Shown one piece after another: positions 10,325-17,196 of a DNA stretch of 64,000 nucleotides. Numbering within the stretch: position 1 is the first letter of the stretch; every line of letters begins with the position of its first letter. Source of the stretch: a virus. Lineage: Duplodnaviria; Caudoviricetes. Where the stretch lies: the IMG/VR virus record IMGVR_UViG_3300028581_000010. One strand, given 5' to 3'. Under the pieces are notes generated by a model. That model was not told where the DNA came from. It did no database searches and saw only the letters and a program-made list of their open reading frames with translations. The position numbers were made by a program, and so were the translations under genes.

Positions 10325-11383
10325 TTATTCCTCTGGTGTCTCTAGCAGTCTACGTGCCTGTTCCCGTGACAACCCTGCTATGGGGTTGGCTGGCAGCTTA
10401 GAAGCCTTTTTAGGGGCAACTGGGGCCGCAGGCTTGGGTGCTGAGAATGTGGGCTTCGCGACCTCGAAGTCGTCTTCCTCCTTAACTTCTTCCTCCACTA
10501 CACGCACAGGAGGGCTGACGTAGTCAACTTCTTGCTCTTCCTCGTATTCAGGTTCCGGCGGTCTAGCCAGAGGTTTCCTCGCAGGTGCCTTAGGGGCTAC
10601 CTTGATGACCTCTCTGGGCAAACCATCATAACCATCCATGCACTCGTTAAATACCTCACGCGAGTACATTTTGCGCAATCCTGCAATGATCTCTTCCGTG
10701 CTCTTGAACTGGAGTACGTCGTCCAAGTTATACAGATAGTCCGCATCTGCGAGCTTATCTGGTAGCTTGATCGCTTGACTTGGATCAGGTGCGATCGACC
10801 ACGGGTTGGAGCTATTCTCTTTCAGCTTCACGTGTACCGCTAGACAGCGCTCGGGATCATTGATGAGCGGGCGGTCATTACCATGCAGATCTTTCTCTGC
10901 CAGCCAGTTATGGAGCGAGTCCGCACCATTCTTTAGCGGTAGGTCGAGGACGTGGGCCCCTGCCTTTAGGTTGTTTGCGAACGCGACATTATATAGCACG
11001 CGCTGCGTGATTCTCCCGAAGTTGGGATACTTCTTGAACTTCTTACCATTCACATCTACCTCGCCTACAGCGGCTTCATCTGGATAGAGTAGCTTGAAGT
11101 TATTTGCAAAGTACTCGGCTGGATCTTCCGCCTTGTTGAGTACGATATATTTCTCTTTGTAGTTGTCGCCGAAGTTATCACGAATCGTGATCACCTTGAA
11201 CCACACACCGTTGCCGGCACCGTCATCTGTATAGCCGGGCAGGAAGTAAAGATATGCACCTTCCTGGTTTGTTGTCTTATTGAATACCGCGCGGCGCACA
11301 CCCTCGCGGATATACTGCGCACTATTGGAGCCTAACTGCATTTCCGACCCCTGGAATGTTTTCGATGGTTTTATAATCGCCAT
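10325..11383 (-). CDS. putative single-stranded DNA-binding protein (gp32-like)
   Basis: Directly upstream of recA. It has an aromatic-rich N-terminal domain and an acidic/Pro-rich low-complexity tail. The assignment is largely positional. Confidence 0.45.
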   Translation of the reverse strand: MAIIKPSKTFQGSEMQLGSNSAQYIREGVRRAVFNKTTNQEGAYLYFLPGYTDDGAGNGVWFKVITIRDNFGDNYKEKYIVLNKAEDPAEYFANNFKLLYPDEAAVGEVDVNGKKFKKYPNFGRITQRVLYNVAFANNLKAGAHVLDLPLKNGADSLHNWLAEKDLHGNDRPLINDPERCLAVHVKLKENSSNPWSIAPDPSQAIKLPDKLADADYLYNLDDVLQFKSTEEIIAGLRKMYSREVFNECMDGYDGLPREVIKVAPKAPARKPLARPPEPEYEEEQEVDYVSPPVRVVEEEVKEEDDFEVAKPTFSAPKPAAPVAPKKASKLPANPIAGLSREQARRLLETPEE

Positions 11384-11536: not shown

Positions 11537-12142
11537 TTATACCATCAGAATCTTTTTATCTGTGCGTTGACCACGCAGATAATTCAGGAAGGTTTGTAGC
11601 ATCATACCTGAGATGATGATGGGCAATGCATGCGAGATGTTCTCCTCTTTCTCCCATGCGAGCAGGCAGCCGCCTGTCTCCTTCGAGTCGTCGATGTACG
11701 GCTCCAGCTGGTTCTTAGGCAGTTCCGAGTTGAACAGCGCACCGGTACGTGACGTACAGCGGCCGTCGATCCAGAACGGAGCATCCTTGCCATGCTTCCA
11801 GCCATAGTTGTAGAGCATCTTGCGGAACTCCATGGAGTCCACACACGAGAACACAACATCATATTTCTTCAAGTCCTTCTCAGTCATGAATTTGGTGATA
11901 CCATTGACCACGAACTTCTCCTCGAGCACCTTCACCTTATGCTTGCCGACATCGTCGAGCGTAAAGCGCTGGTGCAGCAGGTTGGATGTATCCACAACGT
12001 CGTCGTCATAGATGTCAACCTCCATGCCGGAGTAGTCAAACTGCTTTCTGTTGTAGCCGTAGTCGAACAGGACCGCAAGCAAATTGCTTCCAATCCCTCC
12101 CGCTCCAGCAATGCCGATTTTCTTGATTTTCTTAATGTCCAT
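11537..12142 (-). CDS. ThiF/MoeB/E1-like activating enzyme
   Basis: KIGIAGAGGIGS, DDDVVDTSNLLHQ, SCVDSMEFRK, WIDGR and a candidate catalytic Cys in TGGCL. The start is at MDIKK. Confidence 0.93.
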   Translation of the reverse strand: MDIKKIKKIGIAGAGGIGSNLLAVLFDYGYNRKQFDYSGMEVDIYDDDVVDTSNLLHQRFTLDDVGKHKVKVLEEKFVVNGITKFMTEKDLKKYDVVFSCVDSMEFRKMLYNYGWKHGKDAPFWIDGRCTSRTGALFNSELPKNQLEPYIDDSKETGGCLLAWEKEENISHALPIIISGMMLQTFLNYLRGQRTDKKILMV

Positions 12143-12581
12143 TTGATAGGAGAGCCTCCATGGAGCTCTTGGGTAGATAGTAAATGTACAGGTCCTCGTA
12201 GGCCTCACCCATCCACTCGGAAGCAGAATAGTATCCGCGCTCCGTAGCATAGATGTAGTTGTACTTGAACCCCATAAACAGTTTGTTTAGGTCCAGCGAG
12301 CTTGGAGACGGGCTGAACGACGGGTGAGTGTGAAAGCTGCCGTGCAACTTCCATCCTTCCTGCACACGCGGTACGATCAGCTCACCGAAGTCTCCCTCGT
12401 GGGCCTCATATAGCCCAAGCGCTGTGGTCGAACCTGTGTATATGTTACGCAACTTGACAAACTCGAAGTCTTCGTCGCGATGCAGGAGTAATCCGCCCTC
12501 TTCTTCCGAGGACTTGCTGCACAGAGCAGCTGCTCTGTATAATTCTTGGGCTAGGTTGTAACTGATTCTTTCTCTAAGCAT
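12132..12581 (-). CDS. JAB/MPN+ (JAMM) metallo-isopeptidase
   Basis: EEEGG plus an exact H-x-H-x7-S-x2-D motif (HTHPSFSPSPSSLD). Confidence 0.92.
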   Translation of the reverse strand: MLRERISYNLAQELYRAAALCSKSSEEEGGLLLHRDEDFEFVKLRNIYTGSTTALGLYEAHEGDFGELIVPRVQEGWKLHGSFHTHPSFSPSPSSLDLNKLFMGFKYNYIYATERGYYSASEWMGEAYEDLYIYYLPKSSMEALLSNGH

Positions 12582-12643: not shown

Positions 12644-13021
12644 TTAGTACGCAGGGTATTCCTGCTTCTTGTGAACACCCATCTCTCCAAGGTGCTCATC
12701 GCCCAGTCCTTCCGGGTCAAACTCCTCGTCGTCGAATGCTGTGTCCCGTATTGGGTCGAACAGCAAGGCTTCGATGTCAGGATCGTCCATAATCTCCTTG
12801 TCAGCATTCTCGAGCTCCACAGCCACCGGCTGCAGTACGCTGGCATCTTCTTCTGCCGCGTAGATGCGATCCAACGCCTTCTCGAGGAACAACGCCAAGG
12901 CGTTCTCCACTTCGACTGGGTTGGTCTGCAGCCGCTCAAGCGCCTGTGTTATGGTTAGGGTTTCATCCAAGGCTGCTGTAAGCACCTCGGCCAATAGGTC
13001 GTCTTGTATTTCGATTTGCAT
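12644..13021 (-). CDS. highly acidic hypothetical protein
   Basis: D/E-rich 125-aa ORF between the 730-aa gene and JAB. Confidence 0.65.
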   Translation of the reverse strand: MQIEIQDDLLAEVLTAALDETLTITQALERLQTNPVEVENALALFLEKALDRIYAAEEDASVLQPVAVELENADKEIMDDPDIEALLFDPIRDTAFDDEEFDPEGLGDEHLGEMGVHKKQEYPAY

Positions 13022-15213
13022 TATGCTGGAATTAGGTTGTCTTTAATCTTAGCGATGTCTTCGATAACTGCGTCATCCGGCAGGGCAGCGAGAGCTGCAA
13101 GGCCGTTGTCACGTTCAGGGTGATAGTCATCGTGGGCGTTCTCAGCACCTGGCTGAGCATGACCCTTGAGCGTACCGATCTTGTTCTGAACTGCAGAATC
13201 ATTCTTTAGGGCGAGTAGCCGAGAAGCGATGTCATCGTAGCCAGCACCTTTGTAGTGATAGTCATTGACGATACATCTGTATTGCTGAGTGTCATAGTCA
13301 TACACCTTAGCATTCTCAACCACAACTGCATACTTGCGCAGCTTGCCTTGGACGATATACGCGTCCTTGCCCTTGAACTTCTCCATCACGGCACCAGTCA
13401 TCTTGATCGCAGCGTTCAAGAACTCCTTCGAGCGCTCGATAGCCTTGCTCTTGTTCTCGATAACCAGACCAACCACTTTCTCAATGTCCTTGAGTGTGAT
13501 CTTTGCCTTAACGACTTTGTTGCCGTCCTCATCCTTGGTAGTCTCGGACGTGGTATCGATCAGTGCCTGAGCGGTCTCCTTCCTGGCCCACTCGAAGTCA
13601 CGACGTTTGTAATCGTAGCCCTGGCGGCCGTACTGATTGTTCGTGCGCTTGTTGACGCTGTTGACCTTGGCAATGAGCGAGCGCAGCGATACACGCAGGC
13701 TACGTTCCTTATCAACCTCCAGCATGATGTGATGCTTCTCCGCATCGAAGTAGAACTTGAGCGCAGGTGCATTCAGCCCTGGTATCTCGTCGTTGTACTC
13801 ATCGTTCGTGATGTTCTTGTGAATCTTCACCGGCAGCCCGTTAGCGATGACGTCATGCCACTTGATGGACATGCGACTGGTCGCCTTGAGGAACAGCTTG
13901 TAGTCCTCTGCACTGCGGTAGCAGGACGCACGATGGATAACCTGCCCAATCTCGTCCTTGTTGATGCGCGTTCCGTTAACCTTGCGCTGGTGATCCTTCG
14001 TAATGGAGGCCTCGATGTCGATGCCGTTGATCTTGATTGCCGGTAGCTTGTACTCCTTGGGAGCCTCTTCGCCGGCTTTCTTCGCGGTAAACGCGTCAGC
14101 AGGGAGTGCTCCGTTGGCGAGCTTCGCCGTCAGCTCTCCACCAACCAGGTCGACGATCGTGTAGATGTCGAACTCGCCGTTGAAGTTCAGCTTGTTGTAG
14201 AGCACGTCGATCAGGTTTGGATACTCGACCGATACGTTCTCATATGTAGCTGTATCTTGCTTGATGGTGATGTCGTTGATCTTGATCTGCTGGATCTCAC
14301 CTGCCTTGAGCTTACCCACGACCACGAGGTTGGAGCTTCTGCGGTAGTCGTTCTCCATCTTTACATGGGCAGCGGCATACGCCTCCTTAACCTTCTTGGT
14401 CAGCTTCTTTTCCATACGCAGGCGTAGAATATCTCCGTCGTGCGAGTTGATGAAGCACTTCTTAACAAGCAGCTTGGTCAGCGCAGGCTGCAGCAAGCAC
14501 ATCAGCATGATGTGGGCTGTGTTGATGTCGTAGTTGTTCGTGACAATATACGACGGCTTGCCTAGCCGTGTTGCCGATGGCGCCTTCATGAGGAAGAAGC
14601 CCTTGTCTAGGTAGTCGTACAGCGGCTCAGTCTCCTTCACCATCATACACAGCATCGGAGAGTCACCGGAGTAGCTCACCTCAGTCCTGTTTGTGTCGAA
14701 GTGCTGACCTGTCAGAATACGATATGTATTTCCCTTGGACAGATGCTCAATAGGCTCGTGCTGAATCAGCGTCGGCGTATAGGCGATGTCCAGCTCCTGT
14801 GGCACCAGCTTGATGCTCTTGTGCAGGGCCGGTAGATCTTTCCGAATGTGCGTCAGCGTGAGGTTCTTCTGCGGAGCAGGGTAGTTCGTATTGGTGTTCT
14901 CATAGAACCCGCGTACGCCATACTCCACACCTCCGCCACCAGCGCTCTTGCGAATCTTGTCAGGAAGCTCCCTGTCGGCGGTTGTGAGCTTTAAATTGTG
15001 CAGAAACAGCGGTGAGCCGCCTGCTGCGAAGTATGCATGCATCTTGTGCGCGTCGGCAAAAGAGGCAGCCTCGAGATACAACACGTGAGATAGCCCGCCC
15101 TGCACTGTGTTGTTGTACTTAAAGTCAAAAACTACAGCGCCGTCAGACAACGCCCCTGAGGACTTGCTGAACGAGCTGATTAGCTTTTTAAATTCTGGTA
15201 ATGTTAATTTCAT
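13021..15213 (-). CDS. 730-aa hypothetical protein of the Ubl operon (candidate E2/E3-like or substrate)
   Basis: Long ORF between the Ubl and JAB genes. The C-terminal domain contains YRCIV...DDIASRLLALKND. Confidence 0.8.
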   Translation of the reverse strand: MKLTLPEFKKLISSFSKSSGALSDGAVVFDFKYNNTVQGGLSHVLYLEAASFADAHKMHAYFAAGGSPLFLHNLKLTTADRELPDKIRKSAGGGGVEYGVRGFYENTNTNYPAPQKNLTLTHIRKDLPALHKSIKLVPQELDIAYTPTLIQHEPIEHLSKGNTYRILTGQHFDTNRTEVSYSGDSPMLCMMVKETEPLYDYLDKGFFLMKAPSATRLGKPSYIVTNNYDINTAHIMLMCLLQPALTKLLVKKCFINSHDGDILRLRMEKKLTKKVKEAYAAAHVKMENDYRRSSNLVVVGKLKAGEIQQIKINDITIKQDTATYENVSVEYPNLIDVLYNKLNFNGEFDIYTIVDLVGGELTAKLANGALPADAFTAKKAGEEAPKEYKLPAIKINGIDIEASITKDHQRKVNGTRINKDEIGQVIHRASCYRSAEDYKLFLKATSRMSIKWHDVIANGLPVKIHKNITNDEYNDEIPGLNAPALKFYFDAEKHHIMLEVDKERSLRVSLRSLIAKVNSVNKRTNNQYGRQGYDYKRRDFEWARKETAQALIDTTSETTKDEDGNKVVKAKITLKDIEKVVGLVIENKSKAIERSKEFLNAAIKMTGAVMEKFKGKDAYIVQGKLRKYAVVVENAKVYDYDTQQYRCIVNDYHYKGAGYDDIASRLLALKNDSAVQNKIGTLKGHAQPGAENAHDDYHPERDNGLAALAALPDDAVIEDIAKIKDNLIPA

Positions 15214-15244: not shown

Positions 15245-15279
15245 TAAAACAAAAAGGGTGGGGAAGTTATCCCCACCCT
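15245..15279 (-). terminator. intrinsic terminator downstream of the Ubl gene
   Basis: 10-bp stem AGGGTGGGGA/TCCCCACCCT with a 5-nt loop, followed by TTTTGTTTT on the minus strand. Confidence 0.8.
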
Positions 15280-15370
15280 CTTGTTCAAAAACTCACCCCC
15301 GATTACGCATAGCTGCTTGATACAGCCAGAGGCGGGGGGTGACGTAGTCAGTGGCCCTTAGGGCCGTACA

Positions 15371-15667
15371 TTAGAGCTTGTACAGAGCTGTGTAGAAGTC
15401 GTACGCCTCCTGGGCAGTACCACCAACCAGCACACCAGTCAGAAGGATCATCGGATCATTCTCGGCAGCGAGCTTGTTGCGGAGCTTATTGACGTTTGCG
15501 TTGTCGCGCACGTCAGCGCCCTCGAACTCGAACTTCTCACCGTTGATGAAGACCCAGCGTTGGTTCTTCTCGGCGTTATCGCAGATTGTGTCGACGGCGG
15601 CGTCGAGTTCTAGATCTGCTACTGTGGTGTGACCAGTGCGGTCAGCGATGTCGATTTTGTATGTCAT
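15371..15667 (-). CDS. ubiquitin-like (ThiS/MoaD beta-grasp) protein with a GG motif and a 15-aa C-terminal extension
   Basis: 98 aa from MTYKID. WVFINGEKF and a final strand DPMILLTGVLVGG are followed by TAQEAYDFYTALYKL. Confidence 0.78.
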   Translation of the reverse strand: MTYKIDIADRTGHTTVADLELDAAVDTICDNAEKNQRWVFINGEKFEFEGADVRDNANVNKLRNKLAAENDPMILLTGVLVGGTAQEAYDFYTALYKL

Positions 15668-16464: not shown

Positions 16465-17196
16465 TTATTTGTGGATAGGGAATCTTATATGCCGTATGGA
16501 CCCATCTTTCAGAGTTCTGTCTACGCAGGCACGGCATCTCAAACACGCACCACTATCCTTTGTGTTCTTCATCTTGCCTGTAATTTCCGGACAGACCAAC
16601 ACAGGCCTGTCGTTGAGTTGGGCAGGAAACTCGTCGCCCATGAACGCCACAGATATGTTCTTACAATCCTTATACTTCTCGTTATACTCAGCCAGCACCT
16701 CAGCTTGATTCACAGGGTCGCAGCTCAGCAGTATTGTAAGGTGCTCGCAGTCCTTCAGGGCATGGACAGCAAAAAGACTTCTGGTATACAGCCAAAACCG
16801 TATATCAGAATTCTTTTTGATGACCCTGCTCCAGGCGTGCGCATATGCGTCGTTGAATAGGTCTCCAGATGTGTGCAGCCTGAAATATGGTGAGCGGTCG
16901 CCGCCGTTTAAACGCCACTTTGTTACAGTGTTGTCCAGTATCTCAAACAGCTCCTCTGCCGTTTTATCTTGCAGTAGTGCAGTATTCTCGTCTTCAACCG
17001 CAGCGTAGCCCTTGTAGCGCTTTCGTAGAGAGGCTGCGTAGCATACCTTGAGGCAGCCACCTTTACCTTCTGTAGCACATGGACAGCTTCCTCCATCTTC
17101 TGGCTTGCCAGAACGTAAGCTGAACGTATTGAAGTGTCCGTCGTAACTTCTTACTTTTGAATTATTTGTTAATTTTAATGACTTGTATTTTTCCAT
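16465..17196 (-). CDS. GP88-like phage protein (Cys-rich, radical-SAM-related)
   Basis: TFSL..SCP....C...CYA, YFRLHTSGD, WLYTRS and C-terminal CP..C..C..C. Confidence 0.75.
   Translation of the reverse strand: MEKYKSLKLTNNSKVRSYDGHFNTFSLRSGKPEDGGSCPCATEGKGGCLKVCYAASLRKRYKGYAAVEDENTALLQDKTAEELFEILDNTVTKWRLNGGDRSPYFRLHTSGDLFNDAYAHAWSRVIKKNSDIRFWLYTRSLFAVHALKDCEHLTILLSCDPVNQAEVLAEYNEKYKDCKNISVAFMGDEFPAQLNDRPVLVCPEITGKMKNTKDSGACLRCRACVDRTLKDGSIRHIRFPIHK

Follow-up and report, generated by a model that had tools for sequence, protein, structure and literature searches.

We analysed a 64,000-nucleotide stretch of the IMG/VR virus record IMGVR_UViG_3300028581_000010 (hereafter the window, by which we mean this stretch at its full length), which is part of a contig of about 215 kb from an uncultured jumbo phage. 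The subject is a protein of 730 amino acids (aa) that is encoded in the window within a conserved module, together with a ubiquitin-like protein (Ubl), a minimal ThiF-type activating enzyme (E1) and a JAB metallopeptidase. In our judgement the case is about evenly poised for reading this protein as the Ubl-accepting component of a phage Ubl cascade, similar in role to a conjugating enzyme (E2) and possibly a hybrid of an E2 and a ligase (E3). The coordinates of the features are given in Table 1.

The co-occurrence of the genes was investigated with small hidden Markov models (HMMs) for the E1, the JAB peptidase and the Ubl, which were scanned over all open reading frames (ORFs) of the window and of 34 related loci. 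Wherever the flanking sequence is long enough, the Ubl, the large protein and the E1 are all present, and so is the JAB peptidase outside the L007/L008 lineage. The quartet also holds in lineages that are at E-values of 1e-24 to 1e-33 from the query and in which the other neighbours and even the gene order are different: these distant lineages carry a sigma factor, a T7-like PolA, a ribonucleotide reductase and RecU, and the Ubl gene comes after the large gene, not before it. The only conserved partner of the Ubl, the E1 and the JAB peptidase is the family of the 730-aa protein. In encoding an E1 adenylation domain, a JAB peptidase and a Ubl ending in Gly-Gly (GG) together, the module resembles Ubl conjugation operons of the Bil, Bub and type II CBASS (cyclic oligonucleotide-based anti-phage signalling system) kind.

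A search for other E2s was carried out in five related phage genomes, four of which are at least 93% complete while one has terminal repeats. ThiF is present in exactly one copy per genome in all five, and none of the six Pfam families UQ_con and Prok-E2_A to Prok-E2_E gave anything above the cut-off. Given the single ThiF, the lack of a known E2 in these five genomes and the constant co-occurrence described above, no conserved candidate for the conjugating role is left but the large protein. A sub-threshold match to Prok-E2_C in one related genome (14.9 bits) was dismissed as it lies in a tail-fibre-like protein of 324 aa. The ThiF matches of two of the related genomes (G403:C1:23432-24073 and G406:C1:124827-125432) contain one in-frame stop (TGA or TAG), which may be due to the match running into the end of the overlapping JAB gene.

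Judged by its sequence, the C-terminal domain of the phage protein (about 110 residues) is a remote but real homologue of the bacterial DUF7737 domain. The Pfam model PF24879 (DUF7737) gave a sub-threshold match in 68 of 71 family members, exactly on the C-terminal domain and with a top E-value of 9.7e-5; the window protein itself reaches 13.6 bits, and thus not the gathering score of 27 bits. An HMM of the phage domain compared with the bacterial DUF7737 domains gave an E-value of 5.8e-7, and hhalign one of 3.9e-4. The DUF4132/DUF7737 models of the ESM Atlas are the top structural matches of the domain, with template modelling (TM) scores of 0.57-0.58 over 110-112 residues. Both kinds of domain carry the signature G...Y...C[IV][VI]...L..D, with the residues G, Y, C, V, L and D in common, and the cysteine is embedded in QYRCIVND in the phage and in QYLCIVPD or AYLCVIPD in the bacteria. 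The conservation of this residue, Cys647 of the phage protein, had been set as one of the tests in the first-pass annotation, a set of remarks made from the letters of the window before this work; it is invariant in 229 of 229 phage domains and in 12 of 12 bacterial DUF7737 domains.

The bacterial carriers of the domain were sampled as well. DUF7737 was found in 4 of 401, 4 of 201 and 5 of 201 sampled Pseudomonadota genomes and, among the control genomes, in D. radiodurans; in the three bacterial giants that were scanned, both DUF4132 and DUF7737 were confirmed by Pfam. A small ORF ending in ..L.PL.GG directly precedes the gene of the bacterial giant at nine of the nine loci with upstream sequence. 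Since a GG-ended small ORF stands beside the domain in the phages and at all of these bacterial loci, the domain keeps company with GG-ended Ubls in two unrelated settings. The similarity between the phage and the bacterial Ubls is not significant (HMM E-values of 0.001-0.3 on three sequences; hhalign E 0.18). One bacterial contig (locus L056, G600:C142:18300-22657) carries two DUF7737 giants in tandem, both with the YLCIV cysteine. We found no paper on DUF7737 in the literature; it is described, however, that the drA0165-drA0166 operon of D. radiodurans is strongly induced on depletion of the DdrO repressor and that DRA0166 carries DUF4132 (PMC8533742).

The fold of the C-terminal domain was predicted both within the whole protein and for the domain alone. 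Folded alone (residues 565-705), the domain has a predicted local distance difference test score (pLDDT) of 88 and a predicted TM score (pTM) of 0.79, and its elements follow the order a1-b1-b2-b3-b4-loop(Cys)-a2. In this model a long helix is followed by four antiparallel strands, by the loop with Cys647, where the confidence dips to about 72, and by helices; the cysteine follows strand 4 by 8 residues and precedes the next helix by 13. An isolated cysteine in a beta-rich context followed by a helix, as the first-pass annotation had described it, is what both AlphaFold models contain. Cys647 thus has the place of the cysteine of E2 enzymes, with strand 4 before it and helix 2 after it, in terms of the order along the chain and not of the position in space.

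The same annotation had proposed comparing this fold with UBC and Prok-E2 folds, and the nearest folds are indeed of this kind, if weakly. An exhaustive aligner run with the domain against 48,161 PDB representatives gave a top Z-score of 4.1, for the Vps23 UEV domain (root-mean-square deviation (rmsd) 4.0, 85 residues aligned), with UEV, UBC E2, RWD, FANCL, the Cap2 E2 domain or BubB accounting for 29 of the 50 listed neighbours and for 10 of the first 11. The UBC E2s among these neighbours include Ubc9, UBE2S, UBE2F, Ubc8, Ube2W and others, while BubB is at Z 3.4 and the Cap2 E2 domain at Z 3.0. Re-examination of Foldseek candidates added UFC1, the Bil E2 and Mediator/kinetochore RWD modules at Z 2-3.2, and the fold search with the whole protein also places families of the UEV/UBC/RWD type on residues 583-689. 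These models are suggestive of a UBC/UEV/RWD-like sandwich, a fold that we do not regard as established.

The whole 730-aa protein, modelled by AlphaFold with an alignment of 71 sequences, has a mean pLDDT of 84 and a pTM of 0.54. Besides the cysteines, D203, G459, G623 and D672 are invariant across the superfamily, and N671, R665, D660 and T681 are nearly so. Foldseek searches with the whole model gave nothing at E<=0.001 in the PDB and only three unnamed viral proteins of about 440 aa in BFVD. DUF4132, HEAT and WGR are not detectable in the phage protein; Pfam finds no DUF4132, and in hhalign comparisons with YehI and three DUF4132-DUF7737 proteins the DUF7737 core alone aligns. No internal repeat was shown when the C-terminal domain was aligned to the remaining protein (hhalign E 0.32). 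At residues 150-173 (14695-14766, minus strand) there is an invariant motif, E..EG..TYR.LTG, that weakly resembles the DUF7737 hairpin G.LRTYKIHIG (hhalign E 0.23) and that might represent a second, degenerate and cysteine-free copy of the domain. A marginal match to DUF3605 (E 0.025) in one of the 71 members was dismissed.

The first-pass annotation called the protein an orphan, a description that does not survive the wider searches. A metagenome-scale search recovered 92 clusters of relatives of about 700 aa at 30-50% identity, many of them on contigs of 170-220 kb, and a profile search against 1.84 billion representatives recovered 493 clusters at E<=0.001, 349 of them at E<=1e-10, where clusters are counted at 50% identity. 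The relatives are about 650-790 aa long and all of them are on contigs of uncultured phages; in IMG/VR there are 26 loci of the family. No significant name for the protein came from Pfam, PHROGs, PADLOC or NCBIfam, and in the PDB neither the profile of the whole family nor that of the domain found anything significant by sequence. There is no match in 50,697 deposited records of cultured phages (tblastn with the protein and two distant relatives, megablast with 16 kb of the window), and a scan of the species-representative bacterial and archaeal genomes of GTDB with the family alignment found no relative. The C-terminal domain was not found in other architectures either, all longer matches being members of the family of about 700 aa or fragments on short contigs.

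The Ubl has 44 homologues, which share a common core and end in GG plus 0 to about 40 variable residues; across the lineages the end of the core reads ..LT.[VL].GG, and the Ubl either stops there or continues with 1 to about 40 variable residues or with an extension of 100-190 aa. The variable tails after the Gly-Gly fit a role of the JAB peptidase in maturation. In two lineages the Ubl is fused past its Gly-Gly to a polypeptide of about 190 aa (L005 9351-10169) or about 100 aa (L002 7396-7944), like ubiquitin fusion precursors, and these C-terminal parts belong to no known family. The E1 has the nucleotide-binding glycines (GxGxxG), and in an alignment of 30 E1s a cysteine at the C-terminal end (GGC or GSC) is kept in the four divergent lineages shown. 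Its closest NCBIfam model is the PRTRC ThiF (E 3.5e-16), and there are weak PADLOC matches to Cap2-type E1-E2 proteins.

In the cascade that we favour, the Ubl precursor would be trimmed by the JAB peptidase so that its Gly-Gly is exposed, and this end would then be adenylated by the minimal ThiF-type E1. The Ubl would pass as a thioester onto Cys647 of the DUF7737 domain, either directly or via the conserved cysteine of the E1, and from there onto a target picked by the N-terminal part of about 570 residues. Our data establish the conservation of the gene, its constant co-occurrence with the Ubl and the E1, the homology to DUF7737, the two invariant cysteines and the order of the structural elements in the domain model; the thioester, the direction of the transfer and the target are inferred. 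A hybrid of E2 and E3 is considered because the N-terminal part is large and because the protein has a second invariant cysteine, Cys431. The E1 of Bub systems has no catalytic cysteine, and the E2 of Bil systems has been proposed to select its own targets (PMC11601596). These two cases are a precedent for an unusual hand-over from E1 to E2 and for E2s that pick their own targets. From the replication, recombination and nucleotide genes of the neighbourhood, and from the DNA-damage induction in Deinococcus, we can only infer a link to DNA metabolism, which by the gene context would be one to replication or repair.

The suggestion of the first-pass annotation that the protein is a divergent E2-like thioester acceptor has thus gained an invariant cysteine, nearest folds of the UEV/UBC/RWD type and the position of the only conserved partner of the module. 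It is partly supported, and none of the outcomes that the annotation had named as refuting was observed. A number of results weigh against it. All fold scores of the domain are weak, their maximum of Z 4.1 being lower than the 7-8 that the tool quotes as the usual best score by chance, and Foldseek with the domain gave nothing at E<=0.001, the top rows being frataxin at a probability <=0.15. None of the 71 members has an E2, UEV or RWD match in Pfam even at E<=1, PADLOC gave no E2 model match, and neither PADLOC nor NCBIfam gave a match for the protein. There is no HPN motif ahead of Cys647, the sequence being ..KVYDY.T.QYRCIV.., and the correspondence with the E2 cysteine is one of chain order only because there is no residue-level superposition. 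The N-terminal 570 residues, as modelled within the whole protein, do not resemble any solved fold in a way that stands out (all Z <4.3), and the language-model search gave 0.75, which is below the usable level. Moreover, a Ubl system does not strictly need an E2, as SAMP/UbaA, TtuB/TtuC and Urm1 work without one.

The complex between the mature Ubl and the whole protein was also predicted. It scored 0.45 as compared to 0.00 for the best of three controls, at least 23% of the contacts agreed between the runs, and the partner pLDDT was at least 79. The mark of 0.45 is reached by 58 of 80 solved complexes and by 2 of 110 mismatched pairs; just 7 of the 80 solved complexes pass with a score <=0.60, as do both of the passing mismatches. 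The prediction thus lends weak support to a binding of the Ubl to the 730-aa protein.

The alternative that we consider unlikely but take most seriously is a partner without catalytic function. This would be either a dedicated substrate with a lysine as the site of Ubl attachment in E1-only conjugation, or a UEV/RWD-like scaffold that holds the Ubl non-covalently and brings it to other proteins. UEV and RWD domains, which do not catalyse, score as high in the fold search as true E2s; E1-only conjugation has an established precedent in SAMP/UbaA and TtuB/TtuC; the predicted Ubl binding is weakly supported; and the bacterial DUF7737 giants usually have no adjacent E1, none being present at the three loci for which all flanking ORFs were listed. 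However, the absolute conservation of one cysteine in all the phage and bacterial domains is hard to explain for a pure binder or a lysine acceptor. UEV and RWD domains are characteristically without this cysteine, which is here invariant, and not a single lysine is conserved at 90% or more across the superfamily, which is against a lysine acceptor.

The two invariant cysteines would find a use if the module were a sulfur-carrier and not a protein-tagging system, in which case the Ubl would be thiocarboxylated and the 730-aa protein would relay persulfide or sulfur in the thiolation of a nucleic acid or a small molecule, the JAB peptidase merely exposing the Gly-Gly, as happens with CysO/Mec+ and QbsE/QbsD. 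In favour of this are a Ubl of the ThiS/MoaD type, an E1 that comes nearest to ThiF-type adenylyltransferases, and the location of the module among nucleotide and DNA-metabolism genes. A Ubl, an E1 and a JAB peptidase without an E2 are the classic sulfur-carrier layout (PMC1779556), and the phage module, with no known E2, matches it. The weak top rows of Foldseek, moreover, are frataxin, an activator of persulfide transfer; these rows, besides their low probability, have an rmsd of around 10 A and do not recur in the list of the exhaustive aligner. Among the Pfam families of the genes around five loci from three lineages there is no rhodanese, cysteine desulfurase, PP-loop ATPase or partner of the ThiG/MoaE/CysM type, although the host could supply the sulfur, and the family consensus has neither a PP-loop nor an Fe-S cluster motif. 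We rate this explanation as rather improbable, somewhat below the non-catalytic partner. We give very little credence to the idea that the protein acts in replication or recombination independently and is a mere syntenic neighbour of the Ubl genes. The gene does lie between PolA/GP88 and genes for a single-strand DNA-binding-like protein and RecA, and the N-terminal 570 residues are without a link to Ubl biology, but the adjacency to Ubl and E1 persists in lineages with other neighbours and even another order of the genes, and in bacteria, too, this end domain is paired with GG-ended Ubls.

Table 1. Features of the Ubl module and of its large protein (positions in the window)
Feature	Position	Strand	Remarks
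Minimal ThiF-type E1, ~200 aa	11537..12142	-	ThiF, E 7.7e-18
JAB/JAMM metallopeptidase	12132..12581	-	HxH...S..D motif intact; Prok-JAB, E 1.5e-7; weak PADLOC JAB matches
Acidic 125-aa protein	12644..13021	-	ATG overlaps the stop of the 730-aa gene (TAATG)
730-aa protein, large conserved partner of the phage Ubl/E1/JAB module	13021..15213	-	ORF with ATG start
C-terminal DUF7737-like domain (residues ~574-700)	13114..13494	-	Helix, four-strand meander, Cys loop, helix (predicted)
Cys647 codon (YRCIV)	13273..13275	-	Candidate active-site cysteine
Cys431 codon (RASC)	13921..13923	-	Helix end in the middle region; invariant in 224/224 aligned sequences
Terminator-like hairpin between the Ubl and 730-aa genes	15252..15282	-	13 pairs (7 G-C) and a T run; consensus match only
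Ubl precursor	15371..15667	-	83-aa core ending in LLTGVLVGG and 15-aa extension; GG codons 15419-15424

The ORF of the large protein starts at the first ATG past a stop, and its N-terminus agrees with the family consensus. The reading frame and the strings that the first-pass annotation had quoted from it were recovered as given: 13264-13284 on the minus strand encode QYRCIVN, and the C-terminus is the one quoted. The genes on the minus strand are, in order, DnaB, UDG-PolA, a GP88-family protein (with an AP2/HNH-type gene on the plus strand preceding it), a basic protein of 246 aa and the Ubl, followed by the 730-aa ORF, the acidic 125-aa ORF, JAB, the ThiF-type E1, a protein of 352 aa and a RecA/UvsX-like recombinase. 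The large protein is thus located between Ubl and JAB, as had been stated. The annotation had further seen no recognisable E2 gene elsewhere in the window, and the five related genomes likewise gave none above the cut-off. Partial termination at the hairpin between the Ubl and 730-aa genes could keep the level of the Ubl above that of the enzymes, if the consensus match is a terminator.

The surroundings of the module are variable. The acidic 125-aa protein is conserved in the close lineage only, and its slot is occupied by an unrelated Cys-rich protein of 71 aa in L002 and by the Ubl in L004/L007. In some close relatives there is an extra gene for a protein of 209 aa between the acidic protein and JAB (L001 10543-11172), which the window does not have. 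Distant lineages carry a conserved protein of 121-142 aa always directly upstream of the large gene (L004 6560-6988, L005 6617-6982, L007 6640-7020), and there is no counterpart at the same position in the lineage of the window. The GP88-family protein (16465-17196, minus strand; PF17338, E 2.9e-30), three genes upstream of the 730-aa gene, has a C.C...C...C cluster; its gene is also found a few genes upstream in L001 and L002 and not in the distant lineages. The 352-aa protein (10325-11383, minus strand), which lies between the E1 and RecA/UvsX and has no family, is conserved in L001 (340 aa) and L002 (335 aa); its tail is acidic and rich in proline and alanine, and its position suggests a single-strand DNA-binding protein.

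To our knowledge, Ubl conjugation in prokaryotes has so far been a matter of bacterial anti-phage defence (Bil, type II CBASS, probably Bub). Here the Ubl machinery is on the side of the phage, conserved in hundreds of lineages of uncultured phages and with a location among early replication genes, and it could be a new route for remodelling host or viral proteins. We found no publication on a phage-encoded Ubl/E1/JAB module that has a partner of this kind. What is new in our data is a phage version with constant E1 and JAB, a cysteine common to the phage and bacterial domains, and a UBC/UEV/RWD-like model of the domain. A wider proposal, which we hold to be possible rather than probable, is that DUF7737 is an unrecognised E2-like clade of the UBC fold and that the phages have a self-contained Ubl cascade that tags host or phage proteins. 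If this were true, a precursor Ubl, a JAB maturase and deconjugase, a minimal E1 and a 700-aa E2/E3 hybrid, expressed together with the replication genes, would make up the first cascade for Ubl conjugation that a bacterial virus encodes. It would also help to explain mechanistically the widespread DUF4132/MolR giants of bacteria, whose Deinococcus member is induced by DNA damage and belongs to the regulon of the radiation and desiccation response. In any case DUF7737 obtains a first concrete and testable hypothesis, i.e. that of a cysteine-dependent E2-like Ubl acceptor, which extends to the DUF4132/MolR family.

Among the known systems, the bacterial DUF4132-DUF7737 giants (MolR/YehI-like) are closest to the phage module in that a large protein with a homologous C-terminal domain stands beside a small protein ending in Gly-Gly. 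There is a further likeness in the link to DNA metabolism, given by the induction of the Deinococcus operon on the one hand and by the location of the phage genes in a replication module on the other. The N-terminal 570 residues of the phage protein, however, are unrelated by sequence to the giants. The phage module is always accompanied by an E1 and nearly always by JAB, unlike the bacterial pair of Ubl and giant, and the phage Ubl often has a C-terminal extension whereas the bacterial GG proteins examined end exactly at the GG.

Bil follows the same four-part logic, with BilA as the Ubl, BilB as the E2, BilC as the JAB peptidase and BilD as the E1, the phage module having a Ubl, an E1, a JAB peptidase and a would-be conjugator. 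Bil has no separate E3, and its E2 is thought to choose its own targets (PMC11601596). In contrast, Bil is a bacterial anti-phage defence and the module described here is encoded by a phage; BilB is a small and recognisable E2 whereas the candidate here has 730 aa and no E2 match by sequence; and the E1 BilD is large, its adenylation domains being in tandem and its Cys domain mobile, whereas the phage E1 has about 200 residues. The Bub system of the 6E/DUF6527 operons resembles the phage module in its divergent E1, E2 and Ubl machinery, in an E1 without a canonical catalytic-cysteine domain and in a Ubl precursor that is processed by a JAB peptidase, as is predicted for the phage. It differs in using oxyester (serine) intermediates and a DUF6527 serine protease, while the phage module has an invariant cysteine and no DUF6527. 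In the case of type II CBASS, the phage E1 and JAB weakly match the PADLOC models of the Cap2-type E1-E2 and of JAB (Cap2/Cap3). CBASS has no separate Ubl, as the C-terminus of the CD-NTase is conjugated, and its E2 is fused to the E1, whereas the phage has a Ubl and its candidate E2 is fused to a large region.

The E2-free and sulfur-carrier systems SAMP/UbaA/HvJAMM1, TtuB/TtuC, Urm1/Uba4, ThiS/ThiF, MoaD/MoeB and CysO/Mec+ share with the phage module a ThiS/MoaD-like Ubl with a GG end, a MoeB/ThiF-like E1 and a JAB peptidase that can expose the Gly-Gly (PMC1779556). They have no obligatory large partner with a cysteine, unlike the phage module, and their E1s usually come with a rhodanese domain or with sulfur-mobilising enzymes, none of which was seen in the phage neighbourhoods. 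As to the layout of the large protein itself, a comparison may be drawn with the eukaryotic giants UBE2O and BIRC6. These are E2/E3 hybrids in which a UBC-type domain is at one end and the remainder selects the substrates. Their UBC domains are canonical, with an HPN motif, and the phage domain is not, and there is no sequence relationship; the arrangement of a predicted E2-like domain at the end of a large protein is nevertheless similar.

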